A DNA stretch of 64,000 bases from Thermoanaerobaculia bacterium (GCA_963816185.1 CAWFJJ010000024.1:192001-256000), one strand, 5' to 3'; counted from the first letter of the stretch, positions 17,804 to 40,346 are shown. Translations and numbers: made by a program. The notes: a model not told the origin generated them from the letters alone.

Positions 17804-22078
<4,275 letters not shown>

Positions 22079-22093
22079 GGAGAAGAGAGTCAC

Positions 22094-26317
<4,224 letters not shown>

Positions 26318-26509: not shown

Positions 26510-26545
26510 CGTAAGGTTTTCGGACGCCGACCGATTCTCTGACAC
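26510..26545 (+). promoter_or_regulatory. Candidate upstream activating sequence (tandem site) for the sigma54 activator
   Basis: CGTAAGGTTTTCGGACGCCGACCGATTCTCTGACAC, 31/36 identical to the reverse complement of 39822-39857; 106 nt upstream of the sigma54 motif. Confidence 0.75.
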
Positions 26546-26651: not shown

Positions 26652-26667
26652 TGGCAGCCCGCCTGCA
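26652..26667 (+). promoter_or_regulatory. Sigma54 (-24/-12) promoter of the cytochrome/Qrc-like operon
   Basis: TGGCAGCCCGCCTGCA with GG-N10-GC spacing; 15/16 identical to the motif at 39699-39714 on the minus strand. Confidence 0.75.
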
Positions 26668-26731: not shown

Positions 26732-27940
26732 ATGGGTTCGGCGCGGCAGCTCTTGCTCTGGGTCGTCATTGCGGCGGCTACATCGGCGCTGCTTGGGGGC
26801 GTTCTCTGGCGCGAACGAGGTCACGCTTCCGCGCGCTGGAGCACGCTTCCGATCGGGAGCGCGCGGGACGGGGCGGAGCTGTTCCAGAAGAAGGGCTGCG
26901 TTCACTGTCACGCCGTGAAGGGGCTCGGGGGCACGTCGGGCCCGGACCTCGGCTCCGCAGGCTCCTCTCGATCGCATCCCGACGAGCTCGTCGTCGCGAT
27001 GTGGAACCACGCCCCGCGCATGTGGAAGCGGATGCAGGAGGAGCGTCTCGACTATCCGACGCTCGACGACCAGGAAATGGCCGACGTCTTCGCCTACCTC
27101 TTCGTGGCGCGACATTTGGACGAGGCGGGAGACGCGGTGCGCGGCCAACAGCTCTACGAGACCAAGGGGTGCACCCGCTGCCATGCCCCCCGCGGATCCT
27201 CGGCCAGAGACACGGCTGGCGGGGGCCGAGCGCTCGGGAAGTCCTCTTCTCCCGTCGAATGGGCTCGGGCCATGTGGAACCACCCGCCTGTGACGGATGG
27301 CGGCAACGAGGCGCCTACGTTCGAGGGCCGCGAGATGAACGACCTGCTGGCATTCGTCCGGGGGGCGAGCGTCCCCGGCCCCGACCCGCTGCTTCTCGCC
27401 GCCGACCCCGAGCGCGGCTGGAAGATCTTTCGAGAGAGATCCTGCGTCGCCTGCCATTCAGTCAAGGATGAGACGGGGAAAGTCGGCCCGGAGCTGGGGC
27501 CCGGGCGCGAACTGCCCGCGACGATCGTGCAGCTCGCGGGCACCATGTGGAACCACTCGGAGGCGATGTCGCGCGCCATGAGGGAGCGGGGACTGGCACG
27601 CCCGACCTTCGACAGCCAGGAGATGGCGGACCTGGTCGCGTTCCTCTACGGCGTTCGCAACACCGAGCCGGGCGGCTCGCCCCGCCTCGGGGAGGTGCTC
27701 TACGCCGGACGAGGCTGCGACCGCTGCCACGGGGTGCGGGCGGAAGGGACCGAGCACGGCCCCGGCTTGAGAGGACGCGGAAAGCGGTTCACGTCGATCT
27801 CCTTCGCGGCGGCGCTCTGGCGACACGGCCACATCTACGGGCACGCCCGCGAGAAGGGCCAGAGCTGGCCCGAGCTCTCCGAGGGCGACGTCGGCGACCT
27901 GATCACGTTCCTGAACTCCTCGGCGACCGTGAGACCTTGA
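26732..27940 (+). CDS. Membrane-anchored tetraheme cytochrome c with four repeated monoheme domains (WNH-type)
   Basis: N-terminal hydrophobic helix; CVHCH, CTRCH, CVACH, CDRCH, each followed by MWNH or LWRH and an E-x-x-DL-type helix. Confidence 0.85.
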   Translation: MGSARQLLLWVVIAAATSALLGGVLWRERGHASARWSTLPIGSARDGAELFQKKGCVHCHAVKGLGGTSGPDLGSAGSSRSHPDELVVAMWNHAPRMWKRMQEERLDYPTLDDQEMADVFAYLFVARHLDEAGDAVRGQQLYETKGCTRCHAPRGSSARDTAGGGRALGKSSSPVEWARAMWNHPPVTDGGNEAPTFEGREMNDLLAFVRGASVPGPDPLLLAADPERGWKIFRERSCVACHSVKDETGKVGPELGPGRELPATIVQLAGTMWNHSEAMSRAMRERGLARPTFDSQEMADLVAFLYGVRNTEPGGSPRLGEVLYAGRGCDRCHGVRAEGTEHGPGLRGRGKRFTSISFAAALWRHGHIYGHAREKGQSWPELSEGDVGDLITFLNSSATVRP

Positions 27941-27941
27941 A

Positions 27942-28490
27942 GTGGGAATTCAAGCGTCCGTCCGCAGGGAGTACCGCCTCGTCGTCGCGGGCTTCGCCGC
28001 GGCCTTCGTCCTGGCTGGCGGAGCGACGACGGCCCTCAGACTCGGAGGGCGCAACTCCTACTTCAGGCCGGCCGTGCGCCAGCCCATCGCCTTCAATCAC
28101 AAAAAGCACGTCTCGGAGCTCGACCTTGGCTGTACCACGTGCCACCTCACGGTCGAGACGGAGGCGTTCTCCGGCCTGCCGGACGCCGACGTGTGCGCCG
28201 GCTGCCACCTCGAACCGCAGGGGAAGAGCGAGGAGGAGAAGAGGCTCGTGGAGATGCTGAAGAAAGGGACCGCTCTGGCCTGGAAGCCGCTGTTCCGGCA
28301 GCCGGCGCACATCTTCTACTCCCACCGCCGCCACGTGGTCGCCGCGAAGCTCCAATGCCGCGTCTGCCACGGCGCGATCGCGGATACCGTCGCGCCTCCC
28401 GTGCGCGTGAGGCGCCTCGTGATGAATGACTGCGTTTCGTGCCACCGAAAGAACAGTGTGTCGACGGACTGCACGGTGTGTCACCGGTGA
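27942..28490 (+). CDS. Pentaheme cytochrome c, QrcA/ActA-like
   Basis: N-terminal TM helix, QPIAFNHKKH, CTTCH, CAGCH, YSHRRH, CRVCH, MNDCVSCH, DCTVCH. Confidence 0.85.
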   Translation: MGIQASVRREYRLVVAGFAAAFVLAGGATTALRLGGRNSYFRPAVRQPIAFNHKKHVSELDLGCTTCHLTVETEAFSGLPDADVCAGCHLEPQGKSEEEKRLVEMLKKGTALAWKPLFRQPAHIFYSHRRHVVAAKLQCRVCHGAIADTVAPPVRVRRLVMNDCVSCHRKNSVSTDCTVCHR

Positions 28491-28531
28491 GAGAGCCGAC
28501 GGACCTCCCGACGGAACCCGAAGTGAAGGGA

Positions 28532-30928
28532 ATGGAGCGGCGCCGGTTCATCGGCCTCGCCATCGGGGCCGCTGCCGGAACCGCCCTCGGTATCCCGGCG
28601 GGGAGCGTCTTCAGCGGGATCCTCGGCTCCGCCGAAAGCCCGATCTATCCGCCGAAGGGGCCGGAGCGGTTCGCGCTCTCCGTTTGCGCTCTCTGCCCCG
28701 GCGGCTGCGGCGTGCGCGTGAGGAAGATCGGCGAGCGCGCCGTCAAGCTGGAAGGCAATCCGCTGCATCCCGTCAACGCCGGACGGCTCTGCCCGAAAGG
28801 ACAGGCGGCGCTGCAGGGCCTTTACCACCCCGACCGCGTCCCCGGTCCGCTTCGACGGGTCGGGCCTCGCGGTTCCCTCCGCTCCTTCGAGCGTACGTCG
28901 TGGGAGAGCGCGCTCGGCGTGATCACGGCACGCCTCCGCTCGCTGCGGGACCGGAGGAGCCCGGAGTCTCTCGTGCTTCTCCGAAGCGGAATGGGCGGGA
29001 TCGGCGTCCGTGTCGCCCAGCGGTTCCTTTCTTCCTTCGGCTCGCCGAACGACGTGTCGCTCGACCGCGGCGAGGCGGCGGCATCCCTCGCCCTCTTCCT
29101 CGGGCAGGGAGTACGCGCGACTCCCGCTTACGACCTGCAGTCGACCGACTACGTGATCTCTCTCGGGGCCTCGCTCCTGGAAGCATCGAGCTCGCCCGTG
29201 CACACGACGCGCGCGTACGGCGAGTTCCGCCAGGGCCGGACGGGACGGCGCGGCAAGCTGGTCCAGGTCGAGCCGCGCCTCTCGCCGACGGCCGCTTCGG
29301 CGGACGAGTGGATCGCCGTCCGGCCCGGTACGGAGGGCATCTTCGCGCTCGGCGTCGCGGGCGTGATCGTCGCCGAGGGCCTCTACGACAAGGAATTCGT
29401 CCAGGAGCGAACGGCCGGCTTCGAGGAGGCGCGTGACGGGCGGCCGTCTTTGCGATCGCTGCTCGAGAGGCATTACGGCCTCGAGCGCGTCGCCTCCGAG
29501 ACGGGCATCTCGGTCAACGTGATCCTCCGTATCGCGCGCGAATTCGCCGCCGCGCGCAGCCGGCTTGCCGTCGGTCCGCGCCGGGGGCCGCTGCTGCCGG
29601 GCCGCCTCTTCGACCATCTCGCGGCGCAGGTCCTGAATGCGCTCGCGGGGAGCATCGACACGCCGGGAGGCGTCCTCGTGCCCGAAGAGGTGCCTCTCGC
29701 GAAGTGGCCGTCGCTCCCGCACGACCCGATCGCCGCGGCGGGCCGCGCGCAAGATCGGCTCGACGGCGACGGAACCGGCTCTCCGCTGGTCGCTTCCGAT
29801 CCGGAACGCCTCGCCGAGGCGATCCTGCAGGGAGTTCCCTACGCCGCCGACGTGGTGATGCTGGCCGGCGCGGATCCCCTCTATGCCTCGGCGGCTCCCG
29901 CGCGGCTCCTCGCCGCGCTCGAGCGCGTGCCGCTCGTCGTCTCGTTCAGCTCGATCGCAGACGACTCGGCGCTCCACGCCGACTGGATCCTGCCCGACGC
30001 GCACTTCCTCGAGCGCTGGGACCTCACCACGTCACCTCCCGGCGTCCCGTTTCCTGTCGCGAGCCTCGCGCAGCCGGCGGTGACAAAGTCGCGGCACGAC
30101 GTACGCCCCGTGACGGAGATTCTCCTCGACCTCGCGGCGCGGGTCGGGCCCGAGATGGCGGCCGCACTGCCGTGGAAGGACTTGCCGACGCTGATCCGGG
30201 CCGAGATGGACGGGCTCTACGGAGCGCGCCGCGGGGCCGTGATGGGTGAACCGTTCGACGAGGCCTGGGTACGGATGATGGAGGGCGCTGGATGGTGGGC
30301 GCCAGGCTACCAGTCGGCCGACGAGCTCTGGAAGAAAGCCGGAGAGTCGGGCGGCTGGTGGGATCCCTTCTACGACCATGGCGACTGGAAGCGAGTGCTC
30401 GCGACCAAGAGCGGCAGGTTCGATTTCCGCCCCGAGCTCCTTTCGCGCGTCGCGCGCGAGACGCCTGTCAGCGCCCCGGGAGAGCGCTCCGAACCGTCGA
30501 GCTCCCTCGCGCTCTACCTCTTCGAGCCGCTCCCGATCGCGGGAGGAACAGGAGCGGAGCTTCCGTTCCTCCCGGGGATCCTTGATCCCGGCCTCGAGGA
30601 GCGCTGGGAGACTTGGGCGGAGATCAACCCGGAGAGCGCGGCGCGGCTCGACATCGAGGACCGCGCCTGGATCCGCGTCGCGTCACCTCAAGGCGCGATC
30701 GTCGCCCGTGCGCGCGTCACGTCTCGCGTCGTGCCGGGCGTCGTCGCGATCCCGCTCGGCCTCGGAAAGCGCGCTGCGGGCCGCTGGGCCAGCGGGATCG
30801 GCGCGAATCCTCTCCAGCTCCTCTCGCCCGCACGCGACCCGCTGTGCGGCCTGCCCGATTTCGACGCGACGAAAGTCCAAGTCTCCGCTTATTCACCTCA
30901 TCGTCTCGTCGGGGAGAGGAGGGCGTAG
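28532..30928 (+). CDS. Tat-exported molybdopterin oxidoreductase-fold subunit (QrcB/ActB-like), probably non-catalytic
   Basis: Tat signal ERRRFIG; CALCPGGC...GRLCPKG [4Fe-4S] motif; VEPRLSPTAASADEW; ADWILP; C-terminal EINPESAARLDI domain; alternative GTG start at 28487. Confidence 0.85.
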   Translation: MERRRFIGLAIGAAAGTALGIPAGSVFSGILGSAESPIYPPKGPERFALSVCALCPGGCGVRVRKIGERAVKLEGNPLHPVNAGRLCPKGQAALQGLYHPDRVPGPLRRVGPRGSLRSFERTSWESALGVITARLRSLRDRRSPESLVLLRSGMGGIGVRVAQRFLSSFGSPNDVSLDRGEAAASLALFLGQGVRATPAYDLQSTDYVISLGASLLEASSSPVHTTRAYGEFRQGRTGRRGKLVQVEPRLSPTAASADEWIAVRPGTEGIFALGVAGVIVAEGLYDKEFVQERTAGFEEARDGRPSLRSLLERHYGLERVASETGISVNVILRIAREFAAARSRLAVGPRRGPLLPGRLFDHLAAQVLNALAGSIDTPGGVLVPEEVPLAKWPSLPHDPIAAAGRAQDRLDGDGTGSPLVASDPERLAEAILQGVPYAADVVMLAGADPLYASAAPARLLAALERVPLVVSFSSIADDSALHADWILPDAHFLERWDLTTSPPGVPFPVASLAQPAVTKSRHDVRPVTEILLDLAARVGPEMAAALPWKDLPTLIRAEMDGLYGARRGAVMGEPFDEAWVRMMEGAGWWAPGYQSADELWKKAGESGGWWDPFYDHGDWKRVLATKSGRFDFRPELLSRVARETPVSAPGERSEPSSSLALYLFEPLPIAGGTGAELPFLPGILDPGLEERWETWAEINPESAARLDIEDRAWIRVASPQGAIVARARVTSRVVPGVVAIPLGLGKRAAGRWASGIGANPLQLLSPARDPLCGLPDFDATKVQVSAYSPHRLVGERRA

Positions 30929-30931
30929 ACG

Positions 30932-31633
30932 ATGGCGCGCTGGGGAATGGTCATCGATCTCGACCGGTGTACTGCGTGCCAGGCCTGCGTCGTCGCCTGT
31001 CAGGTGGAGAACAACGTCGCGCCTCCGAGCGCCGGGCAGGCGACGAGAGGCCGCGCCATCTCGTGGCTGCGCCTCGTCCCGTTCAAGGAAAGCGAGCACG
31101 GGACGCGCCCCGGCCTCCGGCTGGTGCCGTTGCCCTGTATGCAATGCGACCGCCCCCCGTGCACGAAGGTCTGCCCCGTGCAGGCGACCCAGATCGACCG
31201 GGAAGGGCTCGTGGCCCAGGTTTACCCGCGCTGTATCGGCTGCCGGTACTGCACGACCGCTTGCCCGTACACCGTCCGACACTTCAACTGGGAGCGACCC
31301 GAGTGGCCGGAGCCGATGGCGGAAGGTCTGAATCCAGACGTCTCCGTCCGGCCTCGCGGCGTGGTGGAGAAGTGCAGCTTCTGCCATCACCGGCTCCAGC
31401 GCGCCAAGGACAAGGCGGCCGCCGAGAGCCGGCCGCTCAGGGACGGCGATTACGTGCCGGCCTGCGTCGAGACCTGCCCCGCGGGCGCGATGGTCTTCGG
31501 GGACCTCGACGATCCGCGGAGCGCGGTGGTGCGGCTTTCCGAGAGTCCACGGGCGTTTCGGCTTCTCGAGGAGCTGGGCACTCGGCCGAAGGTGATCTAC
31601 CTGTCGAAAGGGGAATCCGGTGGAAGAGTCTGA
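30932..31633 (+). CDS. 4Fe-4S ferredoxin subunit (QrcC/NrfC/DmsB family)
   Basis: RWGMVIDLDRCTACQACVVAC, PCMQCDRPPCTKVCP, CIGCRYCTTACP, KCSFC..PACVETCP. Confidence 0.93.
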   Translation: MARWGMVIDLDRCTACQACVVACQVENNVAPPSAGQATRGRAISWLRLVPFKESEHGTRPGLRLVPLPCMQCDRPPCTKVCPVQATQIDREGLVAQVYPRCIGCRYCTTACPYTVRHFNWERPEWPEPMAEGLNPDVSVRPRGVVEKCSFCHHRLQRAKDKAAAESRPLRDGDYVPACVETCPAGAMVFGDLDDPRSAVVRLSESPRAFRLLEELGTRPKVIYLSKGESGGRV

Positions 31634-32978
31634 ACGGCGCGCCGAGGCCGGACTCGGCACGGACGCGCACCTGCTGCTCCCGATGTCGCGGACGGGGCCC
31701 CGCTTCTGGCTCCTCGTGGGAGGCCTCCTTGCGATCGCGTGCTGGGGGCTCTTCGCGTGGTCCACGCAGCTCCGCCGGGGCCTGTTCGTCACGGGCCTGA
31801 ACGTGCCTGTCTACTGGGGCCTCTACATCACGAACTTCGTCTTCTTCATCGGAATCAGCCACGCAGGGACGCTCATCTCGGCCATCCTCCGCCTGGCTCA
31901 CGCCGAATGGCGCCGGCCCATCACGCGCGCGGCCGAGGTCATCACGGTCCTGGTGCTCTTCTTCGGCCTGGGGTGCGTCATCCTGGACCTGGGCCGACCG
32001 GACCGCGCCCTCAACGTGATCCTGCACGGCAATTTCACGTCCCCGCTCCTCTGGGACGTCGCGTCCATCAGCACCTATCTGACCGCGAGCACGATCTACC
32101 TCTATCTGCCGCTCATCCCGGACATCGCGATCCTCAGGGACAACTTTCAGGGCCGCCACTGGTTCTACCGCGCCCTGGCCCTCGGCTGGACGGGGACTCC
32201 CCGACAGCACCGGCTCCTGGAAAGGGCGATCGCGGTGATGGCGGTCGTCGTGATCCCGATCGCAATCAGCGTCCACACGGTCGTCTCGTGGGTCTTCGCG
32301 ATGACCGTGCAGCCGATGTGGCACTCGACGATCTTCGGGCCCTACTTCGTCGTGGGCGCGATCTTCTCAGGCATCGCCGCGATCATCGTCGCGATGGCGG
32401 CCATCCGCCGGGCATACCACCTCGAGGCGTATTTGAAGCCGATCCACTTCAACAACCTCGGGCTCCTGCTGCTGGTCTTCACGCTCCTCTGGTTCTACTT
32501 CACGTTCGCCGAGTTCCTCACGACCTACTACGGCGCCGAGCCGACGCACATGACGGTCTTCCTCTCCAAGACCGAGGGGAAGTTCTCGCCTTACTTCTGG
32601 GTCATGGTCGTCACGTGCTTCTTCGTCCCGTTCACGCTGCTCGCGAACAACCGGACGCGGAGAACGGTCTGGGGCTGCGTGGCCGCCTCCCTTTCGGTCG
32701 AGGTCGGGATGTGGCTCGAGCGCTTCCTCATCGTCGTTCCGAGCCTCTCGAACCCACGGCTCCCGCTCACCGCGTCCTCCTACACGCCGACCTGGGTGGA
32801 GTGGTCTCTCTTCGCCGCCTTCATCTCCTGCTTCATCCTCCTGTACGCCGTCTTCACGAAGCTCTTCCCGATCGTCTCGATCTGGGAGATCCGAGAGGGC
32901 CGCGAGCATGCGGTGAGCGAGGTCACCACGCGGATCGAGAGCTACCTGCCCGACGCGCTCGAGGCGACGCATGGCTGA
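31620..32978 (+). CDS. NrfD/PsrC-family quinone-interacting membrane subunit (ActC/QrcD-like)
   Basis: WGLYITNFVFFIGISHAGTLISAIL, RAAE, DLGRP, SPLLWD, HTVVS, WHSTIFGPYFVVGAIFSG; about 10 TM helices. Confidence 0.9.
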   Translation: MEESERRAEAGLGTDAHLLLPMSRTGPRFWLLVGGLLAIACWGLFAWSTQLRRGLFVTGLNVPVYWGLYITNFVFFIGISHAGTLISAILRLAHAEWRRPITRAAEVITVLVLFFGLGCVILDLGRPDRALNVILHGNFTSPLLWDVASISTYLTASTIYLYLPLIPDIAILRDNFQGRHWFYRALALGWTGTPRQHRLLERAIAVMAVVVIPIAISVHTVVSWVFAMTVQPMWHSTIFGPYFVVGAIFSGIAAIIVAMAAIRRAYHLEAYLKPIHFNNLGLLLLVFTLLWFYFTFAEFLTTYYGAEPTHMTVFLSKTEGKFSPYFWVMVVTCFFVPFTLLANNRTRRTVWGCVAASLSVEVGMWLERFLIVVPSLSNPRLPLTASSYTPTWVEWSLFAAFISCFILLYAVFTKLFPIVSIWEIREGREHAVSEVTTRIESYLPDALEATHG

Positions 32979-34197
32979 AGGCATTCTCGGGCGGCTCGCT
33001 CTCCTCTGCGTCGTGATTCCGGCGATGCTCCGGCCGAGCCCGGCGGAAGCCGGCTTCGGCGATCCTGCGAAAGGGCAATCGCTGTTCGTCTCGAAGGGAT
33101 GCGTCGAGTGTCACGCCGTGAGAGGCGCCGGAGGCCGCATCGGGCCCGATCTGGGCCGCACGGCGGTCAAGGGCTCCTTCTACGAAATCGCCGCGGCGCT
33201 CTGGAACCACTCGCTCACGATGAGCGACAAGATGAAGGAGTTCCGGCTTGTGCGGCCGAGCTTCCGGGACGACGAGCTCGCGGACCTCCTCGCGTTCCTC
33301 TATTTCCTGAACTACTTCGACGAGCCCGGAGATCCCAAGGTCGGCAAGGTCCTCTTCGCGCAGAAGCACTGCATCCAGTGCCACCGGCTCGGAAAGGAGG
33401 GCGGGAGCGCGGGCCCTCGCCTCGACGCACTTCCCCGGGGGACGTCGCCCCTCAGGATCGCGCAGGACCTCTGGAACCATGGGCCCGCGATGGTGCCGGC
33501 GATTCGCCGCCTCGGCCTCGACATCCCGAAGTTCAACGGGAGCGAGATCATCGACCTCTTCGCCTACCTGCGAAGCCAGGGCCAGAGACAGGCCGCGCAC
33601 GAATTCCGATCGGCGGGCGACCCCAAACGCGGCGGGCGGCTCTTCCGGGAGAAGGGGTGCTCGCGCTGTCACGCCGTGCTCGGGGAAGGAGCGGACATCG
33701 GACCGGACCTCGGAAGCGCCGAGCTGCGCGGCAGCGTCACGCAGCTGGCCGGCAGGATGTGGAACCACTGGCCGGCCATGGCCGAAGCGATGGGCACCCT
33801 CGGTATGGCGCCGCCGACCTTCAAGGGAGAGGATGTCGCGGACGTCTTCGCGTTCCTCTTCATCTCACGCTACGAGTCGCGGCCCGGCGATCTCGCGCGC
33901 GGCCGGGCGATCTACCGGCAGAAGGGGTGCGTCGTCTGCCACGGGCCGGACGGCAAGGGCGGCATCGGCACCTCGCTGAGGACCAGCAGCGGGGAGACAA
34001 AGGAGCAGATCACGCAGCGGATGTGGAACCACGTTCCGCAGATGCGCGACAAGATGGGAGATCACCAGATTCCCTGGCCCCGCTTCGACGCGGAGGAGCT
34101 CGCCGCGCTGCAGGCTCTTCTCGCCGACGGGTGGAAGAGCGAGCCCGCGCCGCAGAGAGCCTTGACGAAACAACGAGGAGGAGGAGGTTCACGATGA
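32971..34197 (+). CDS. Secreted tetraheme cytochrome c with four WNH-type monoheme repeats (paralog of 26732-27940)
   Basis: Signal peptide ending PAEA; CVECH, CIQCH, CSRCH, CVVCH, each followed by (L/M)WNHxxxM. Confidence 0.87.
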   Translation: MAEGILGRLALLCVVIPAMLRPSPAEAGFGDPAKGQSLFVSKGCVECHAVRGAGGRIGPDLGRTAVKGSFYEIAAALWNHSLTMSDKMKEFRLVRPSFRDDELADLLAFLYFLNYFDEPGDPKVGKVLFAQKHCIQCHRLGKEGGSAGPRLDALPRGTSPLRIAQDLWNHGPAMVPAIRRLGLDIPKFNGSEIIDLFAYLRSQGQRQAAHEFRSAGDPKRGGRLFREKGCSRCHAVLGEGADIGPDLGSAELRGSVTQLAGRMWNHWPAMAEAMGTLGMAPPTFKGEDVADVFAFLFISRYESRPGDLARGRAIYRQKGCVVCHGPDGKGGIGTSLRTSSGETKEQITQRMWNHVPQMRDKMGDHQIPWPRFDAEELAALQALLADGWKSEPAPQRALTKQRGGGGSR

Positions 34198-34767
34198 AAT
34201 CGATCGCTCAGCGAGTCCGGTTGGGCGCCCTTGCGGCGCTCGCGGCGGCGGCCCTCGGCCAGACGGCCGGCGCCGAGCCCGCCTACGTCGGCGCGAAGAG
34301 ATGCAAAGGATGCCACCTCAAGGAGTTCACGTCCTGGTCGGAAACCAGGATGTCGAAGGCCTTCGAGCTCCTGAAGCCCGGCGTTTCCGCCGAGGCGAAG
34401 ACGAAGGCGAAGCTCGATCCGAAGAAGGACTACTCGACGGATGCGAACTGCCTCCCGTGCCACACGACCGGCTACGGGAAGCCCGGCGGCTTCGCCGACG
34501 TCGCGACCACGCCTGATCTCGTCGGCGTGCAATGCGAGATGTGCCACGGGCCGGGGGGCACGTACTCTCCAGAAGCAGTACATGAGTCTCCAAAACAAAG
34601 AGTACAAGAAAGCCGAGCTCGTGAAGGTGGGTCTGATCGGGCAGATCGGCAAAGACACGTGCGTGAGCTGCCACAACTCCAAGAGCCCGTTCTTCAAGGC
34701 TTTCAACTTCGAGGAGAGGAAGGCGAAGGGAATCCACACGAAGGTTCCGTTGAAGTACGCGCACTGA
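34194..34767 (+). CDS. Cytochrome c554-family tetraheme protein, interrupted by a +1 frameshift near 34567
   Basis: Signal peptide; YVGAKRCKGCH, AKLDPKKDYSTDANCLPCH, VGVQCEMCHGPG; second frame gives CVSCH...FNFEERKAKGIH; total length 574 nt = 3n+1. Confidence 0.8.
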
Positions 34768-34861
34768 GCGGCGCGCGCTCGAAGGGGGCAGGGGAGCGGG
34801 AGGCTGCGGCGGGAAGGCTCCCGGCGTCGTCTGCGACTATATTGGTGCAGGACCGGGGCCC

Positions 34862-36181
34862 ATGAGGAAAGCGGAGCGCGACCCGCATTGGTCAGGGTGG
34901 CAGTGGGCCACTCTGATGCTGTCGAGCGTCAGCATCGTCGCTGCGGTGTTCGCGACGTGGGAGCTGGTGGAGAACCGCCTCTTCCGGAGCGTCGACTACG
35001 TCACGCTTCACACGCTCTACATCACGCGCGGGATGACGTCCTCTCTGCTCCTGGCCTCGTGGGCGGCGTGGTACGTGCTCCGGCAGCGCCGGCAGAGCGA
35101 GGCCGAGCTCCGCCGGTCGCGCGAGCACTACCGTCATCTCCTCGAGGCTTCGCCCGGCGCCGTTGCGCTCTACGACTCTTCGCTCCGCGTCACTGAGTGG
35201 AACGAGGCCGCCGAGCGCCTTTACGGATTCAGCAAGACCGACGTGATCGGCCGCGAGCTCCCGACCGTTCCCGATGAGAAAAGGGCGGAGCTGCGGGACC
35301 TCCTGCGGAAGGTGGACGCCGGGGATCCGATCGCGGTCGTCGAGACGCTGCGACGCGACGCACGCGGGGAGCTGCTCGAGGTGCAGCTCAGCGTGCTTCC
35401 GTTCCGGGAGCGCGGGAGTCCCAGCAATTTCCTGGAGGTCACCGAGGACATCCGCGAGCGTGTGCGGCTCCGGCAGACGCTCCTGGAGGTCGAGAAGCTC
35501 ACGAGCATCGGGAAGACCGCGGCGGGGACCGCCCATCATCTCAATACTCCTCTCGCCGCCATGCTCCTGCGCGTCCAGATGATGCGGGAGCGGGTGACCG
35601 ACGGGGCGACGGCCTCCGACCTCGAGCGCCTCGAGAGCAGCCTCCAGTTCTGCCAGCAGTTCGTGCGTCGTCTCCTGGAATTCAGCAGCCGACCGGCCGC
35701 GCAGAAGCAGCCCGAAGACGTCGCTCACACGCTCGAATCCGTCGTCAGCTTCCTGGCCCCCTCGCTGAACGCCCGCCACGCACGCGTCTCGATGGACCTC
35801 GGCGCCGTGAACGGCGCAAGAGTCCTCGCCGACCGAAACCTGCTGGAGGCCCTCTTCTCGATCATCCTGAGCAACGCGCTCGACGCCATCTGCGACGGCG
35901 GCAGGATCGCGATCCGGTGCCGCCCCCCCGAGGGCCGATCGCTCGAGGTCGACATTGCCGACGACGGCTGCGGCATCGCGCCGGCTGACCACGCGCACGT
36001 GTTCGAGCCGTTCTTCTCGACGAAGGGACCCGGCAGGGGAACCGGGCTCGGGCTCGCAATCGCACGGCGCATCGTCATCGAGCACGGCGGCTCCATCCGT
36101 CTGCAGGACGCGCCCGGCGGCGGCACGATCGCGTCGATCACGCTCCCCCTCCTGCAGCCGGAAGTCGCGGGGCCGCCATGA
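34862..36181 (+). CDS. Membrane-bound PAS-domain sensor histidine kinase
   Basis: Two TM helices, PAS (WNEAAERLYGFS), H-box AHHLNTP, N-box NALDA, DDGCG, FEPFFSTK, GTGLGL. Confidence 0.92.
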   Translation: MRKAERDPHWSGWQWATLMLSSVSIVAAVFATWELVENRLFRSVDYVTLHTLYITRGMTSSLLLASWAAWYVLRQRRQSEAELRRSREHYRHLLEASPGAVALYDSSLRVTEWNEAAERLYGFSKTDVIGRELPTVPDEKRAELRDLLRKVDAGDPIAVVETLRRDARGELLEVQLSVLPFRERGSPSNFLEVTEDIRERVRLRQTLLEVEKLTSIGKTAAGTAHHLNTPLAAMLLRVQMMRERVTDGATASDLERLESSLQFCQQFVRRLLEFSSRPAAQKQPEDVAHTLESVVSFLAPSLNARHARVSMDLGAVNGARVLADRNLLEALFSIILSNALDAICDGGRIAIRCRPPEGRSLEVDIADDGCGIAPADHAHVFEPFFSTKGPGRGTGLGLAIARRIVIEHGGSIRLQDAPGGGTIASITLPLLQPEVAGPP

Positions 36182-37560
36182 CCGAACGTGACGACTCGCC
36201 CCATCCGTGCGGGATCCTGATCGTCGACGACGACGCGAGCCTCGCGACGACCCTCCAGGATTTCCTGCGACAGGAAGGATATTCAGTCGAGATCGCGCTT
36301 TCCGCCACCGAGGCGCTGGCGGTGCAAGAGCGCAACCCGTACCTCGCGGTTGCGCTCATCGACCTCATCATGCCGGGGACAGACGGCCTGGCGCTGATGG
36401 AGGAGCTCCAGCGCCGAAACCCCGACCTCGCCGTCGTGATCATGACGGGCTACGGCACGATCGAGACGGCCGTCGAGGCCGTCAAGCGCGGGGCCGAAGA
36501 CTACGTGACCAAACCATTCGAACATCAGGTCATCCGGAAAAAGATCGGGCGCCTGATGGAGGTCTTCGAGCTTCGGGAGCACGTGACGCAGCTTGAGGCG
36601 AGCCTCGAGCGCTCGCCCTGTTTCGCGTCGATGGTCACGGTCTCGCCCCTCATGCACCGCGTGATCGAGCGGGCGCGCGTGGCGGCTCGGACGGAGGCGC
36701 CGGTTCTGATTCTCGGCGAGACCGGGACGGGCAAGGAGATGCTGGCCCGCGCGATCCACGACGCCAGCCCCCGCGCCCGCGGGCCGTTCGTGCCCGTGAA
36801 TTGCGGCGCCTTGCCGCGCGAGCTCGTCGAGAGCGAGCTCTTCGGATCCCGGCGCGGGGCCTTCACTGGCGCCTATGCCGACGCGCCCGGAGTCTTCGCG
36901 GCCGCGACGCATGGGACGGTTTTCATGGACGAGATCGGCGAGATGCCGAAGGACGCCCAGGTGAAGTTGCTCCGCGTCTTCGAGGAAGGCGAGGTGCGTC
37001 CCGTGGGGAGCCCGACGGCGGTCCGGGTCGACGTGCGGGTCGTCTCGGCCTCGAACAGGCCGCTTGCGGCGCTCCGCACGGAGCGGCTGCGCGAAGACTT
37101 CTATTTTCGGATCGCGACGGTCGTCATCGAGATCCCGCCGCTCCGCTCGCGGCTGGAGGACGTCTTCGTGCTCGCCCAGCACTTCGTGGGCCGGCTGGCG
37201 CGACAGACCGGGCGGGAGATCACGCTCTCGCGCCCCGCGCTCGAGCTTCTCCTGAACCATCCGTACGCCGGGAACGTGCGGGAGCTCGAGAGCGTGCTGC
37301 TCAGCGCCACGGCCGTCTCGCTCGAAAACCCCCAGACGATCAACGACAAGGACCTCAGGCCGCTCCTGAAGGACTCGGGAAGCCCGCCGCTCCAGGCATT
37401 CACCGGGGACCAGCCGCTCTCGATGGAGCGCCTCGAACAGATGGCGATCCAGCAGGCGCTTCGTCTTTCCGAGGGGAACCGTACGAAGGCCGCGTCCCTG
37501 CTCGGCATCTCCCGCGACACTTTGTACCGGAAGCTCAAACAGGCTAAGACTGAAAGCTGA
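36178..37560 (+). CDS. Sigma54-dependent response regulator (NtrC/AtoC family)
   Basis: Receiver (IVDDD, DLIMP, TKP), AAA+ GETGTGKE, ESELFG, GAFTGA, DEIGEM, GNVREL, Fis HTH (NRTKAASLLGISRDTLYRKL). Confidence 0.95.
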   Translation: MTERDDSPHPCGILIVDDDASLATTLQDFLRQEGYSVEIALSATEALAVQERNPYLAVALIDLIMPGTDGLALMEELQRRNPDLAVVIMTGYGTIETAVEAVKRGAEDYVTKPFEHQVIRKKIGRLMEVFELREHVTQLEASLERSPCFASMVTVSPLMHRVIERARVAARTEAPVLILGETGTGKEMLARAIHDASPRARGPFVPVNCGALPRELVESELFGSRRGAFTGAYADAPGVFAAATHGTVFMDEIGEMPKDAQVKLLRVFEEGEVRPVGSPTAVRVDVRVVSASNRPLAALRTERLREDFYFRIATVVIEIPPLRSRLEDVFVLAQHFVGRLARQTGREITLSRPALELLLNHPYAGNVRELESVLLSATAVSLENPQTINDKDLRPLLKDSGSPPLQAFTGDQPLSMERLEQMAIQQALRLSEGNRTKAASLLGISRDTLYRKLKQAKTES

Positions 37561-37584
37561 ACGACGCGGTCGTTACCTCCACCC

Positions 37585-39669
37585 TCACCGGGCGTGGACC
37601 TTCTCGACGGCCCAGTCCGCTCCCCTCCCATGGCACGTGCCGCAGGCTTCCGTCGGGCCCGAGGAGCCGGGGAAGTTCACCGTGTTCAGGTACGCGTGGG
37701 CTGCCACGTCGCGGCTGTCGTGACAGCCGACGCACGCTGCCGTGCCGGGCCCCTGCGGCGAGAAGAAATCGCGCTGGGTGACGACGGGCACGGCGTCGGA
37801 CGAGACCGGGAGGGTATAGGCCGCGGCGTTCACGTGGCACTTGAGGCAGTCGCGGCGGTCCCCCGGAAACCGGACCCCGTTGAAGTTGGTCGGGCTTCCA
37901 CCCCAGATCGTGTAGTCCTGCGTCAAGTCCACACCCGTGTGAATGCGGTGGATCAGCCGCTTGAAAGCGCCCGACTCCGGCCTGCCGTCGGGATGCCTGT
38001 CCTTGTGGTTCGGGTTGTGGCAGATCACACACAGTTCGATCGCGATGCGCTGACCGCCGTGGGAGAAGAGGGTCGCGAGCCGCTCGTGGCACTTGTTGCA
38101 CTTGTCGAGCGAGACGAGCGTGCGGCGCGGCTTCGCCGTCCCGCCGGTGATCGCGACGTAAATGATCGGATTGAACGCGCCTTCCTGGTATGTCGCCGGG
38201 CCCGCGTGAGGCGCGGGATTCAGCGTCACCGTGCGTCGCACTTCGATGGAGAACGTCCACGTGCCCGAGGCGTCCGCGGGAATCGCGTTCGTGAAGGTGT
38301 ACGTTCCCAGGGTCCCGTCGAAGGTGGCGCCGTCCGCCCTCTCGCGGAAATCGGGGAAGAGGGTGTAGTCGGTCGTGGGCCCACCCAGATCGATGTTCAG
38401 GTTCGAGCCGAACGTCTTCGGGTCGAGGACCGTGCCGTCGCCGTTCGTCAGCTTGAAGGTGACGACGGGCTTCTTGCCCGGAGCGGCCTGGCTGACCGAG
38501 ATGATCTCGGCATTGAGACCCTTGAGCTGCTTCGATTTGTCGGGAACGGTGTGCGCACCTCTGACCGAGGCGTCCCACTCGGCGTCGCCCTGCGGGAGGT
38601 GGCAGGTAGCGCACGTGCCGTCGGCTTGCGGGCCGGCCGGGTGGCCTGCGCCGGTCGTGAAGTTCACGTCGTCATGGCACGAGCCGCACGCCTTCGAGCT
38701 CGGGTAGGTGTACCAGTTCGCGGCCTGCGCTGGCTTATTCGCCGGGTCCGTTCCCTCGTGGCAGTAGTAGCAATTGCGGATGTCCTGCGGAAACGCGACG
38801 GTGGAGTAGTCGTTCGTGCCGGTCAGGATGAACGGCTTGCCCGCCTTCACGCTGGGCAGGTTCTCCCCCCTGTGGATCCGGTGGATCATGACTTTCAGGT
38901 CGAACGACTCACCCGTCTCGCTGAGCGTGTGCTGTGGCTGGTGGCAAAGGACGCAGAGCCTCACGCTGCGCCGCGCGCCTCCGTGCATGGCCAGCGGGTC
39001 GTGGCAGTTGTTGCAGGCCGTGTCGGTGTTGATCGCGTTCCAGACGGGCGTTGCGGGCCCTCCGTCCGCCCTGAAGTCCTTGAACACGTTGTCCGCGTAG
39101 TACGTCTTGCCGTCGAGCACTTCGGCCGGCATCACTCTGCTTGCTTGAACGCCGAGCGTCAGCATCTTCGTGACGTCGAAGTCGGCCGGCAGAGTGGTCC
39201 CGAAGGTGTACTTGGAGTGCCCGAGGTCGAGATCCATCCACGTGCCGCTCTGGTCGGTCGAGGGATTCGTGGCGCCGCTACGGACCCGCGTGGTGTACGC
39301 GAAGTACTGGCGCTTGTCGGCGTCCCAGCTCGCGAGGACGAAGCCGGGTGTGACGGGTCCAGGCGTCAGCGCACCCAGCCGGTCGAGCGGCTGATTGAGA
39401 CTGTCGCTGATCGAAATTTCGACGACCGGTTTCTTGCCGGGCGCCACGTTTGTGACACCCAGAATGGTGACTTTCAATCCGGGCCGAGCGTAGTCGAGCT
39501 GGTCGGCCGCCAGATAGAACTCCCTTTCGAGAGGCGTGTATTTCACATGGCGCGCTACCGGCGGTCCGCCAGCGACGGGTGTCGAGACGGGAATCGGGCG
39601 GGACGAGGGAACGGAGAGCGCCCCGACCCAGAAGACCACCAGCGCGAAACCGCGAGAGAGAAGGCTCAT
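37585..39669 (-). CDS. OmcA/MtrC-family decaheme cytochrome c
   Basis: Two pentaheme blocks (CNNCH, CVLCH, CYYCH, CGSCH, CATCH / CNKCH, CVICH, CLKCH, CVGCH, CGTCH) alternating with beta-rich domains; HGG and IHRIH motifs; ATG 39669 after GGAGGA. Confidence 0.88.
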   Translation of the reverse strand: MSLLSRGFALVVFWVGALSVPSSRPIPVSTPVAGGPPVARHVKYTPLEREFYLAADQLDYARPGLKVTILGVTNVAPGKKPVVEISISDSLNQPLDRLGALTPGPVTPGFVLASWDADKRQYFAYTTRVRSGATNPSTDQSGTWMDLDLGHSKYTFGTTLPADFDVTKMLTLGVQASRVMPAEVLDGKTYYADNVFKDFRADGGPATPVWNAINTDTACNNCHDPLAMHGGARRSVRLCVLCHQPQHTLSETGESFDLKVMIHRIHRGENLPSVKAGKPFILTGTNDYSTVAFPQDIRNCYYCHEGTDPANKPAQAANWYTYPSSKACGSCHDDVNFTTGAGHPAGPQADGTCATCHLPQGDAEWDASVRGAHTVPDKSKQLKGLNAEIISVSQAAPGKKPVVTFKLTNGDGTVLDPKTFGSNLNIDLGGPTTDYTLFPDFRERADGATFDGTLGTYTFTNAIPADASGTWTFSIEVRRTVTLNPAPHAGPATYQEGAFNPIIYVAITGGTAKPRRTLVSLDKCNKCHERLATLFSHGGQRIAIELCVICHNPNHKDRHPDGRPESGAFKRLIHRIHTGVDLTQDYTIWGGSPTNFNGVRFPGDRRDCLKCHVNAAAYTLPVSSDAVPVVTQRDFFSPQGPGTAACVGCHDSRDVAAHAYLNTVNFPGSSGPTEACGTCHGRGADWAVEKVHAR

Positions 39670-39698
39670 GAAATCCTCCGGCTTGTTCGTCTGGACCT

Positions 39699-39714
39699 TG
39701 CAGTCGGGCTGCCA
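39699..39714 (-). promoter_or_regulatory. Sigma54 promoter of the decaheme cytochrome gene
   Basis: Minus strand TGGCAGCCCGACTGCA, GG-N10-GC spacing. Confidence 0.75.
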
Positions 39715-39821
39715 GGGGGCGGCGGGCGGCGGCACGCCGTCGAAGAGCCCCCACGAAAAGACAGGTCAATCAGATCCGAGTCGTTCCGCGAGGCCGGGTC
39801 CACCTGGCGCAAGGGGCGCAG

Positions 39822-39857
39822 GTGTCAGAAAATAAGTCAGCGTCAGAAAACCTTACG
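39822..39857 (-). promoter_or_regulatory. Candidate upstream activating sequence (second copy)
   Basis: Minus strand CGTAAGGTTTTCTGACGCTGACTTATTTTCTGACAC, 107 nt upstream of the sigma54 motif. Confidence 0.75.
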
Positions 39858-39917
39858 CCGCAGAGCCAGGAGACCACCACGACAAAGGAGCCGGTCTGAT
39901 CCGCTGCTCGGTGACTC

Positions 39918-40346
39918 TTAGTTCTTCTCGACCCGGAAGGTGAGCGTCTTCTTGAGCACTCCGTCCATGTACAGGCTGACGGAGTAGCTGCCGACCGGCC
40001 AGCCCTGCGGCGGTTTCGAGCAGTTGAAGGAGCCGATGAACTCGCCTTTCGACGAGAATGTCGTTTCGTTCTCCGCTAATTTGGTCTTCGCTTCGAGCCC
40101 CGCCACCTTCTCGGCGAACCACGAGGCTTTAACTTTCGTCCCCTGCCCGGCGACGACCCGGTACACGGCGAAGACCTTCGGGGTATCCGGGGCGAAAACG
40201 TCCCTCTCGTCCTGCGAGTACTTGTCGCTGGTGGTGATGGCGAGCTTGAAATGCGGCCCGGCCGATTGCGGTTTCGTTTGCTCGGCTGCGAAAACTCCGG
40301 AGCCCAGAAGCGTCGCCGCCAGCGCGACGAGAGCGATTCTTCTCAT
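39918..40346 (-). CDS. Secreted hypothetical protein (predicted beta-rich)
   Basis: AGGAGG RBS; signal peptide MRRIALVALAATLLGSGVFA; C-terminal GWPVGSYSVSLYMDG..KTLTFRV. Confidence 0.75.
   Translation of the reverse strand: MRRIALVALAATLLGSGVFAAEQTKPQSAGPHFKLAITTSDKYSQDERDVFAPDTPKVFAVYRVVAGQGTKVKASWFAEKVAGLEAKTKLAENETTFSSKGEFIGSFNCSKPPQGWPVGSYSVSLYMDGVLKKTLTFRVEKN

Follow-up and report, generated by a model that had tools for sequence, protein, structure and literature searches.

A sigma-54-controlled Qrc/ACIII-like gene cluster beside an OmcA/MtrC-family decaheme gene in a Thermoanaerobaculia genome: a candidate link between the quinone pool and Mtr-type cytochromes

We analyzed a window of 64,000 nt (positions 192001-256000 of contig C24) from a Thermoanaerobaculia metagenome-assembled genome (MAG) of 5.09 Mb in 30 contigs, which is 94.9% complete with 3.4% contamination. 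Genes in the window, whose G+C content is ~67%, were picked by third-position G+C and by heme-binding motifs, and were checked against Pfam and NCBIfam. In what follows, G-numbers denote genomes (G000 being the window genome) and L-numbers denote loci. The window holds a block of ten genes (Table 1) that encode, in order, a tetraheme cytochrome (c4A), a pentaheme cytochrome, a twin-arginine (Tat) exported subunit with the fold of molybdenum bis(pyranopterin guanine dinucleotide) (Mo-bisPGD) enzymes, an iron-sulfur (FeS) subunit, an NrfD-family membrane subunit, a second tetraheme cytochrome (c4B), a c554-like cytochrome, a histidine kinase, a sigma-54-dependent response regulator and, convergent to these, a decaheme cytochrome of the OmcA/MtrC family. 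A preliminary description of this DNA had listed the same ten genes, and all of them, including the Tat, FeS and NrfD subunits, are present at the places and in the order given there. Its count of 27 CxxCH motifs (4+5+4+4+10) also stands as a count, but requires the c554-like gene to be read through a frameshift. We propose, with a probability of roughly 55%, that the block is one sigma-54-controlled respiratory module that links the quinone pool of the membrane with a multiheme cytochrome of the Mtr type. This proposal builds on the gene content and the protein families encoded, on a promoter and upstream DNA box common to the operon and the decaheme gene, and on a recurrent linkage to mtrC or mtrCAB genes in other lineages.

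The four genes from the pentaheme to the NrfD subunit share features with both Qrc and alternative complex III (ACIII). Against NCBIfam, the pentaheme, Mo-fold and FeS subunits find their best models in QrcA (98.8 bits, cut-off 180), QrcB (279.3 bits, cut-off 440) and QrcC (305.1 bits, cut-off 400), and the NrfD subunit scores 47.3 bits with QrcD (cut-off 570), all four remaining under the Qrc equivalog cut-offs. Among solved structures, the pentaheme is closest to the ActA chains of ACIII (E = 6e-20 to 1e-12), the FeS subunit, whose single CxxCH is part of an FeS motif, to the C-terminal domain of ActB (E = 3e-64), and the NrfD subunit to chains of ActC, the ten-helix quinol subunit of ACIII (E between 7e-66 and 4e-60, residues 27-425 being aligned), with ActF reaching only 5e-13. 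A crude hydropathy scan of the NrfD subunit gave 11 partly overlapping windows, corresponding to about nine distinct hydrophobic segments. Considering that all four subunits fall below the Qrc cut-offs and that three are closest to ACIII structures, the label "Qrc/ACIII-like", aptly chosen in the preliminary description, fits these genes, and plain "Qrc" does not. Judged by its sequences, the core is a predicted four-subunit Qrc/ACIII-type complex that combines the architecture of Qrc (separate B and C subunits and one NrfD) with ACIII-like sequences. A canonical ACIII-type set, consisting of a 5-heme open reading frame (ORF) and an NrfD match, lies beside a COX1-family oxidase elsewhere in the genome (G000:C30:533721-545092), which makes the complex in the window a second, distinct NrfD-type complex of this genome. 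In total, the genome contains three COX1-family oxidases and seven NrfD-family genes above the Pfam cut-off, with one further, weaker match. By Pfam, no cytochrome c3, hydrogenase or formate dehydrogenase gene was found among the genes of the block.

To place this core among its relatives, a profile of the Mo-fold subunit was run against contigs of one genome per species, yielding at least 580 confirmed stretches, and 80 loci were looked at. The c4B gene directly follows that for NrfD in 21 of these (L013-L015, L017-L026, L028-L031, L040, L047, L051 and L070), and does so too in G003 and G013. In the window, its start overlaps the stop of the NrfD gene (32971 versus 32978). From this arrangement, c4B is the conserved fifth gene of the core, and is predicted to be translationally coupled to NrfD. 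Most of the 21 loci are labelled Acidobacteriota or Thermoanaerobaculia, with a few labelled Planctomycetota, NC10, Thermodesulfobacteriota, Chlorobiota, Anaeromyxobacter or Eubacteriales; the remaining 59 are ACIII-type (with two NrfD matches, as opposed to the one in this cluster), Psr-like or truncated. c4B shows a weak likeness to CcoP and NorC among solved structures. It has numerous relatives in metagenomes: of the candidates scored, 567 cluster representatives reach E <= 1e-20, all with generic names only. The first tetraheme, c4A, is 41% identical to c4B. It has an N-terminal hydrophobic segment, three WNH motifs and one WRH motif, and matches Cytochrom_C of Pfam in 4 stretches (E = 1.6e-32). 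It is found in a subset of related clusters only, other lineages having a monoheme class I cytochrome at the same position.

The c554-like gene matches the Pfam family Cytochrome_C554 over its N-terminal part (E = 2.9e-24). As assembled, it has three CxxCH motifs in one frame and the fourth in another, owing to one extra base near position 34566 relative to the orthologues in G009 and G003. In seven other loci, the orthologue is one uninterrupted ORF that holds all four CxxCH motifs, with a length of ~190 aa in the three whose sequence includes the start codon. A DNA contig from run X1 (357 bases, depth 2.47), otherwise identical to the window, has one letter fewer at 34565. An mtrA-like gene at 531.6 kb on contig C1 of the same genome (see below) is likewise split over two frames (4+6 motifs), its orthologue in G011 being whole, with 303 aa and 10 motifs. 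Both frameshifts are probably assembly indels, the alternative being a real pseudogene. A c554-family cytochrome follows c4B and the core in MAGs labelled NC10, Thermodesulfobacteriota and other phyla as well, and in distant members of the cluster a c554-family pentaheme is found beside c4B.

The operon and the decaheme gene are each preceded by a sigma-54-type -24/-12 element with GG-N10-GC spacing, and the two elements match each other at 15 of 16 bases. Upstream of each lies a 36-bp box; the two copies agree at 31 of 36 bases and stand at nearly equal distances from their elements (142 versus 143 nt). When the first 18 bases of the box were searched with up to 3 mismatches, these two sites were the only ones in the 5.09 Mb genome. 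The genome encodes rpoN, and the AAA+ domain of the activator in the block carries the GAFTGA motif. In G003 and G007, element and box are found at both sites; in G013, the element was found only before the decaheme gene and a box-like match at both sites; and G009 has kept element and box before the operon. A two-component pair with a sigma-54 activator accompanies most of the c4B-bearing clusters, and orthologues of the histidine kinase, 61-89% identical, lie up- or downstream of the cluster in L013-L016, L018, L028, L093 and L094. We therefore read the operon and the decaheme gene as one putative shared sigma-54 regulon, in which the box is a candidate activator site that would be bound by the adjacent response regulator. 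The promoter sites used for this reading are the two near-identical ones ahead of start codons. Between 34600 and 40000, no sigma-70 promoter-like site was seen, and a terminator scan returned one terminator-like site, inside the decaheme gene, which is below chance expectation. A general search with the sigma-54 consensus TGGCAC-N5-TTGC (up to 2 mismatches) gave 22 matches in the window against 39.5 expected; the consensus is thus not enriched, and the search was set aside.

Table 1. Genes and regulatory features of the block, in window coordinates.
Feature	Position	Strand	Remarks
Upstream box, candidate enhancer for the sigma-54 activator	26510..26545	+	starts 142 nt before the operon -24/-12
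Sigma-54-type -24/-12 element TGGCAGCCCGCCTGCA	26652..26667	+	64 nt before the c4A start codon
c4A tetraheme	26732..27940	+	4 CxxCH, four class I cytochrome c domains
Pentaheme, QrcA/ActA-like, membrane-anchored	27942..28490	+	5 CxxCH, one hydrophobic N-terminal segment
Mo-bisPGD-fold subunit, periplasmic, QrcB/ActB-B1-like	28532..30928	+	RRRF Tat motif, Pfam
Four-cluster FeS subunit, QrcC/ActB-B2-like	30932..31633	+	QrcC 305 bits; no signal peptide of its own
NrfD-family integral membrane quinone-interacting subunit, ActC-like	31620..32978	+	Pfam NrfD E = 7e-35
c4B tetraheme	32971..34197	+	4 CxxCH, four WNH, four class I cytochrome c domains
c554-family tetraheme, periplasmic shuttle candidate	34194..34767	+	Pfam Cytochrome_C554, frameshifted near 34566
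PAS sensor histidine kinase	34862..36181	+	two N-terminal hydrophobic segments, PAS, HisKA, HATPase_c
Sigma-54-dependent response regulator	36178..37560	+	receiver, AAA+ with GAFTGA, HTH_8; Sigma54_activat E = 2.5e-60
OmcA/MtrC-family decaheme, convergent	37585..39669	-	10 CxxCH, TIGR03507 405 bits
Sigma-54-type -24/-12 element TGGCAGCCCGACTGCA	39699..39714	-	29 nt before the decaheme start codon
Upstream box, second copy	39822..39857	-	starts 143 nt before the decaheme -24/-12

The decaheme scores 405 bits against the OmcA/MtrC family model TIGR03507 (cut-off 209) and contains two Mtrc-MtrF_II-IV Pfam stretches; among solved structures, its best match is MtrF (E = 1.5e-38), with MtrC, OmcA and UndA matching as well. 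It is a lone MtrC paralogue without a porin of its own, neither an mtrA gene nor an MtrB/PioB porin gene lying beside it within the window. The preliminary description had stated that mtrA/mtrB, cymA, actD/E/F and terminal oxidase genes are absent from the block, which is correct (with no sequence search made for ActD), NapC/NirT genes being absent from it as well. For mtrAB and cymA, this does not extend to the genome as a whole, in which there is a separate mtrCAB-like locus (G000:C1:529128-538147, L095) with a NapC/NirT-like gene. The first gene of this locus encodes a paralogous MtrC, 59% identical to the decaheme in the window. Next come the mtrA-like decaheme (188.6 bits with TIGR03508 for the intact orthologue, cut-off 192.2) and a 660-aa signal-peptide protein, which has clusters of MtrB/PioB among its Atlas look-alikes (0.98). 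These are followed by a monoheme cytochrome, a pair formed by an 11-heme cytochrome and a cytochrome b561, and a pentaheme of the NapC/NirT family. We tentatively take the 11-heme and cytochrome b561 pair to be a split form of CbcL. The idea put forward in the preliminary description that the complex takes the place of CymA was too strong for this genome, given the NapC/NirT-family pentaheme and the 11-heme and cytochrome b pair at 529-538 kb of C1. No copy of the upstream box was found before this locus in the genome search, and the -24/-12 element has a single near match at this locus, within a different gene and on the opposite strand.

MtrC-family genes are common among related genomes. 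They occur in 35 of 41 close relatives and, at E <= 1e-100, in 89 of the 201 species-level genomes (36 of 80 genera) that make up our class sample, far above the five Acidobacteriia described in PMC8805035 (here and below, statements on the literature refer to the portions of each paper that were consulted). Both tallies include the unpublished genome G030, and that for the class also includes G196; none of the other results depends on these two genomes. A QrcB-like gene (E <= 1e-100) is present in 12 of the 201, in 9 of them with at least 58% identity, and all nine of the latter also hold an MtrC-family gene, against a background of 89/201. Within the window's own genus (25 genomes sampled), the cluster is present in five genomes and the decaheme adjoins it in four of these five; it is adjacent in G003, G007 and G013, in the last of these upstream on the same strand. 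The decaheme gene, the promoter ahead of it and the adjoining box are contained in a discrete 2.36-kb segment (37564-39923) that is present in G000, G003 and G007.

The linkage also recurs in other arrangements. In L015 and L018, the genes for the histidine kinase, the response regulator, c4A, the pentaheme, the Mo-fold, FeS and NrfD subunits, c4B and the c554-like cytochrome all lie on one strand; mtrC, an mtrA-like gene with 10 hemes and a ~640-aa porin-like gene come next on that strand, the same order of mtrC, mtrA-like and porin-like genes that is seen at 529-534 kb of C1. In L025, which by its coordinates is probably the same contig as C57 of G147, and in L051, the decaheme gene directly follows c4B; in G116, cluster and decaheme gene are on opposite strands, 8.6 kb apart. 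A gene-neighbourhood comparison had been named in the preliminary description as a check on its idea; on running it, we find the cluster beside mtrC or an mtrC-mtrA-porin set in other lineages, so that the co-occurrence recurs. In a tree of MtrC-family proteins, the decahemes of G000, G003 and G013 and that of L025 form one clade (support 100/99), sister to the mtrCAB-linked MtrC of the genus, and the L015 protein groups with G033 and the L018 protein with G040, that is, with mtrCAB-linked proteins of other genera. Since the L025 clade, L015 and L018 stand in separate places, the association of cluster and decaheme is found at no fewer than three points of the MtrC tree. A further arrangement was observed in L070 (1459-21947), where a core with a c554-family pentaheme converges on genes for a 10-heme cytochrome (296 aa), a 619-aa protein of no family and a second 10-heme cytochrome (713 aa), with a 17-heme ORF upstream; given this porin-bearing set, the Eubacteriales label of that locus looks like a binning or labelling oddity.

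These findings can be combined into a proposed mechanism. The ActC-like NrfD subunit would bind quinol or quinone, the four-cluster FeS subunit would sit on NrfD, and the complex would face the periplasm, the Tat signal of the Mo-fold subunit probably bringing the FeS subunit across the membrane. By analogy with ACIII, in which the pentaheme is the wire and the class I cytochrome on top of it the exit (PMC5928083), the FeS cluster nearest NrfD would exchange electrons with quinol and the membrane-anchored pentaheme would serve as a heme wire. We place c4B, which is a constant member of the cluster and whose gene begins before that for NrfD ends, tentatively in the position of ActE, as the exit or entry point of the complex. 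c4A and the c554-like cytochrome, whether soluble or anchored, could then ferry electrons across the periplasm. The decaheme would most likely be located at the outer membrane and use the MtrA-porin pair encoded on C1. In Shewanella, extra decahemes of the OmcA/MtrF type are used in a comparable way. Outward flow is the most likely direction, and would run from quinol through the complex, the c4 and c554 cytochromes, and the MtrA-porin pair with MtrC to Fe(III), Mn(IV) or humics. The role of the complex would in this case be that of a quinol dehydrogenase, one for which the NapC/NirT-like and CbcL-like genes at the mtrCAB locus provide alternatives, and the PAS kinase and sigma-54 activator would switch the module on. 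The preliminary description had pictured a quinone-to-decaheme conduit in which a complex iron-sulfur molybdoenzyme-type complex is joined by periplasmic cytochromes, and the shared sigma-54 promoter and box, as well as the linkage to mtrC or mtrCAB elsewhere, lend this picture support.

Several features of the block could also be read in other ways, the first of which concerns the Mo-fold subunit. All three Pfam domains expected of such a protein (Molybdop_Fe4S4, Molybdopterin and Molydop_binding) are present besides the Tat signal, and its full-length likeness to the solved structures of ArrA (1e-78) and PsrA (4e-65) is far above that to ActB (1e-16 to 1e-23). It might thus be a working molybdo- or tungstoenzyme of the Psr/Arr/Phs group that acts on a periplasmic substrate, the cytochromes, including the decaheme, being its electron donors or acceptors. 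We consider this very improbable. Across 12 family members, no conserved Cys, Sec, Ser or Asp that could serve as Mo ligand follows the GSPN motif: position 178 varies among D, E, H, Y and N, either G or W stands at 180, and 181 is taken by E, D or G, with no invariant Cys, Ser or Asp. An Asp or Glu does stand beside the aligned ligand site in many of them (at 178 in 8 of 12 and at 181 in 10 of 12), but the ligand loop is 4-5 residues shorter than in a Cys-bearing Psr-like paralogue of the same genome (C1:585 kb). The four FS0 cysteines are invariant in the family and would suit an enzyme; we had considered them as a mark that sets the family apart from ACIII and Qrc, and dropped this idea, as nearly all ActB-type sequences fetched keep the same four. 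This conservation extends to nearly all ActB-type and related Mo-fold sequences of loci L032-L092, though the corresponding domain B1 of solved ACIII has no visible cofactor (PMC5928083). The best NCBIfam model, QrcB, is likewise a protein described as cofactor-less (PMC13059093, PMC6303296), and partner subunits of the ActA/ActC type, as encoded here, go with non-catalytic Mo-fold proteins (PMC6303296). The Mo-fold subunit is therefore probably non-catalytic, as far as its sequence can tell. In an NC10-labelled MAG (L047:10001-17198), a relative that is 45% identical has kept a Cys at the aligned Mo-ligand position, which speaks for the enzyme reading of the family. The genes on either side of it are QrcA-like, c4B-like and for a c554-family pentaheme, and it may belong to a catalytic relative of the complex.

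In a second reading, the same module would work inward. Electrons from Fe(II) outside the cell, from reduced humics or from a partner cell would enter by way of MtrAB/MtrC, pass the c554 and c4 cytochromes and reduce the quinone pool through the complex, much as Qrc, which takes electrons from type I cytochrome c3, reduces menaquinone in sulfate reducers. Alternatively, the class I cytochromes would pass them to heme-copper oxidases, of which the genome has the three of the COX1 family mentioned above. Class I cytochromes with His/Met ligation are typical of high-potential aerobic chains. Two considerations make inward flow a serious rival, even if we hold it to be unlikely: these cytochromes may be of high potential, and Qrc is a quinone reductase that obtains its electrons from cytochromes of the periplasm (PMC6303296, PMC13059093). 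The Mtr relatives MtoAB and PioAB also run inward in iron oxidisers (PMC8805035), and the sequencing runs that hold the window sequence are labelled soil, wetland and freshwater sediment, habitats in which, going by the labels only, redox interfaces are common. The three subunits other than the Mo-fold subunit are, however, nearer to ACIII, a quinol oxidase, than the Qrc scores suggest; the block has no carbon-fixation or other lithotrophy context; and we saw no Cyc2-type or other iron-oxidation marker, though no search was aimed at such markers. A different proposal, rather improbable in our judgement, would do without a dedicated partnership altogether: the complex and c4B would form a general quinol:cytochrome c oxidoreductase, a second and streamlined ACIII that serves periplasmic or membrane reductases such as oxidases and N-oxide reductases, with the decaheme as one among several possible neighbours. 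In its favour, a decaheme was found in only 5 of the 21 c4B loci (L014, L015, L018, L025 and L051), the core is accompanied in L017 and L030 by genes for cytochrome b and other multiheme proteins instead, G009 does without a decaheme, and ACIII clusters adjoin varied reductases in other MAGs (PMC10732223). Against it, the genome already has the canonical ACIII next to an oxidase at C30:533-546 kb, the box and promoter are duplicated before the decaheme gene and nowhere else in the genome, and mtrC or mtrCAB is joined to the cluster on the same strand in several lineages.

The proposal of a quinone-to-Mtr module has to be held against a number of observations that weigh against it. The linkage between cluster and decaheme is not obligatory: no decaheme was found within 6 kb in the long-flank loci L017, L023, L024, L028 and L029, and G009, which has the same flanking genes, is without the 2.36-kb segment, 37564-39923 corresponding to just ~50 nt in it (L013:17847-17895). 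The co-occurrence counts take in related genomes that are not independent, and are therefore overstated. Candidates for a quinol dehydrogenase are already encoded elsewhere in the genome, at the mtrCAB-like locus. Class I cytochromes c often have high potentials, which would make them a poor fit for downhill transfer to the low-potential hemes of MtrC. In Shewanella, OmcA/MtrC decahemes carry a lipoprotein signal with a lipobox cysteine; the decaheme of the window has no cysteine between its start codon and the first heme motif (around residue 219), and so no lipobox; in its mtrCAB-linked paralogue, the ~227 residues that precede the heme motifs are likewise free of cysteine. The likeness of the porin-like protein to MtrB/PioB is a lead from its position, its size and a language model; the porin-like proteins match no Pfam or NCBIfam family, and PF11854 finds nothing in the genome at E up to 1. 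Lastly, contigs from two soil metatranscriptome runs are 93-99% identical over parts of the Mo-fold, FeS, NrfD and decaheme genes, but these RNA-library contigs stem from relatives and prove neither transcription here nor co-expression.

Outside the block, rpoB and rpoC lie upstream (17804-26317), and genes for a small secreted protein and a squalene/phytoene synthase lie downstream. Just upstream of the box of the decaheme gene, a 142-aa signal-peptide protein is encoded at 39918-40346 on the minus strand; it has no Pfam match, and its DNA is 80% identical in G009. Elsewhere in the genome (G000:C30:335789-341650, plus strand), a 1953-aa ORF contains 61 CxxCH motifs and would encode a giant multiheme cytochrome.

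Quinol-oxidizing modules other than CymA have been connected to Mtr systems before. In Aeromonas hydrophila, the NrfBCD-like quinol dehydrogenase NetBCD feeds MtrCAB through PdsA, and SirCD can replace CymA in Shewanella, from which it follows that NrfCD-type modules can feed Mtr (PMC8805035, PMC9012536). The gene set described here has, as far as we could find, not been reported. In the portions consulted, a survey of NrfD-type complexes does not include one of this composition among those described (PMC8076601), and an ACIII-like cluster beside a porin-cytochrome gene set is mentioned in passing for one MAG (PMC10732223). Our search of full-text literature returned no description of the gene set or of its Mtr link; supplementary tables, which lay outside its scope, could hold such neighbourhoods. 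The earlier remark that this is not a described system thus applies to the exact gene set, but there is a precedent in kind in NetBCD-PdsA-MtrCAB. Going further, and tentatively, we suggest that the clusters represent an undescribed and environmentally widespread family of complexes between Qrc and ACIII. Its members would have separate B and C subunits and a single NrfD of the ActC type, would always include a class I cytochrome with four domains, and would in many cases add a tetraheme of the c554 type. This family could be the missing inner-membrane quinone oxidoreductase of acidobacterial Mtr electron transfer, maybe energy-conserving, as Qrc and ACIII are, and maybe bidirectional depending on its redox partner, with the lone MtrC as a dedicated, co-regulated terminal module. 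The presence of an MtrC-family gene in 89 of 201 class genomes suggests that Mtr-type electron transfer may be common in soil and peat Acidobacteriota. A survey that covers acidobacteria left open how Mtr connects to the quinone pool (PMC8805035), and the module offers a concrete candidate for this link, with a defined regulator and DNA box. As a natural intermediate between Qrc and ACIII, the complex may also be of use for studying how NrfD-type modules are rewired and, if our proposal is true, it bears on models of iron and humic respiration, and hence of carbon turnover, in wetlands.

By its defining features, the complex stands outside both Qrc and ACIII, and most likely works like them. 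With QrcABCD, the menaquinone reductase of sulfate-reducing Desulfobacterota, it shares a multiheme cytochrome, a separate Tat-exported Mo-fold subunit, a separate four-cluster FeS subunit and one NrfD-type subunit, as well as the best NCBIfam matches of three subunits and the lack of a conserved Mo ligand in the Mo-fold subunit. It differs in that its cytochrome has five hemes rather than the six of QrcA, in that every subunit scores under the equivalog cut-off, and in its partners, which are class I, c554 and MtrC cytochromes instead of the cytochrome c3 with hydrogenase or formate dehydrogenase of Qrc. The host differs as well, being an acidobacterium with oxidases, whereas QrcD in the consulted portions of the survey was found solely in Deltaproteobacteria (PMC8076601). 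ACIII resembles the complex in its pentaheme, FeS module and NrfD subunit, for which ActA, the C-terminal domain of ActB and ActC are the nearest solved structures, and in having a gene for a c-type cytochrome of class I fold right after that for the membrane subunit, ActE being the exit heme there (PMC5928083). Unlike in ACIII, where ActB fuses the Mo-fold (B1) and FeS (B2) modules, these are encoded here by two genes (28532-30928 and 30932-31633); a four-domain tetraheme takes the place of the monoheme ActE; there is no second NrfD-like subunit corresponding to ActF, and no gene of the block was identified as ActD, for which no sequence search was made; and the canonical ACIII-oxidase locus sits elsewhere in the same genome.

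On the side of the Mtr proteins, the closest comparison within the phylum is the MtrCAB of Acidobacteriia (Group 5 of Baker et al. 2022). Both have a decaheme of the MtrC family in a host from the Acidobacteriota, and in the window genome and its relatives mtrC comes first, an mtrA-like gene with 10 hemes second and a porin-like gene third. For the five Acidobacteriia, the consulted portions of that study report no inner-membrane quinone oxidoreductase nearby (PMC8805035), whereas such genes are adjacent or co-regulated here; the decaheme of the window, in turn, stands alone, without mtrAB. The nearest functional precedent, as far as the consulted descriptions go, is NetBCD-PdsA-MtrCAB, in which a pentaheme, an NrfC-type FeS protein and an NrfD-type protein pass electrons to a small periplasmic cytochrome and on to MtrC, MtrA and a porin, and which we compared by description, not by sequence. 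Relative to NetBCD, the module described here has an additional Mo-fold Tat subunit, NrfD and pentaheme subunits of the ActC and ActA type, one or two four-domain class I cytochromes with a c554 tetraheme instead of the diheme PdsA, sigma-54 control and, in this genome, a lone MtrC paralogue rather than mtrCAB as its neighbour.

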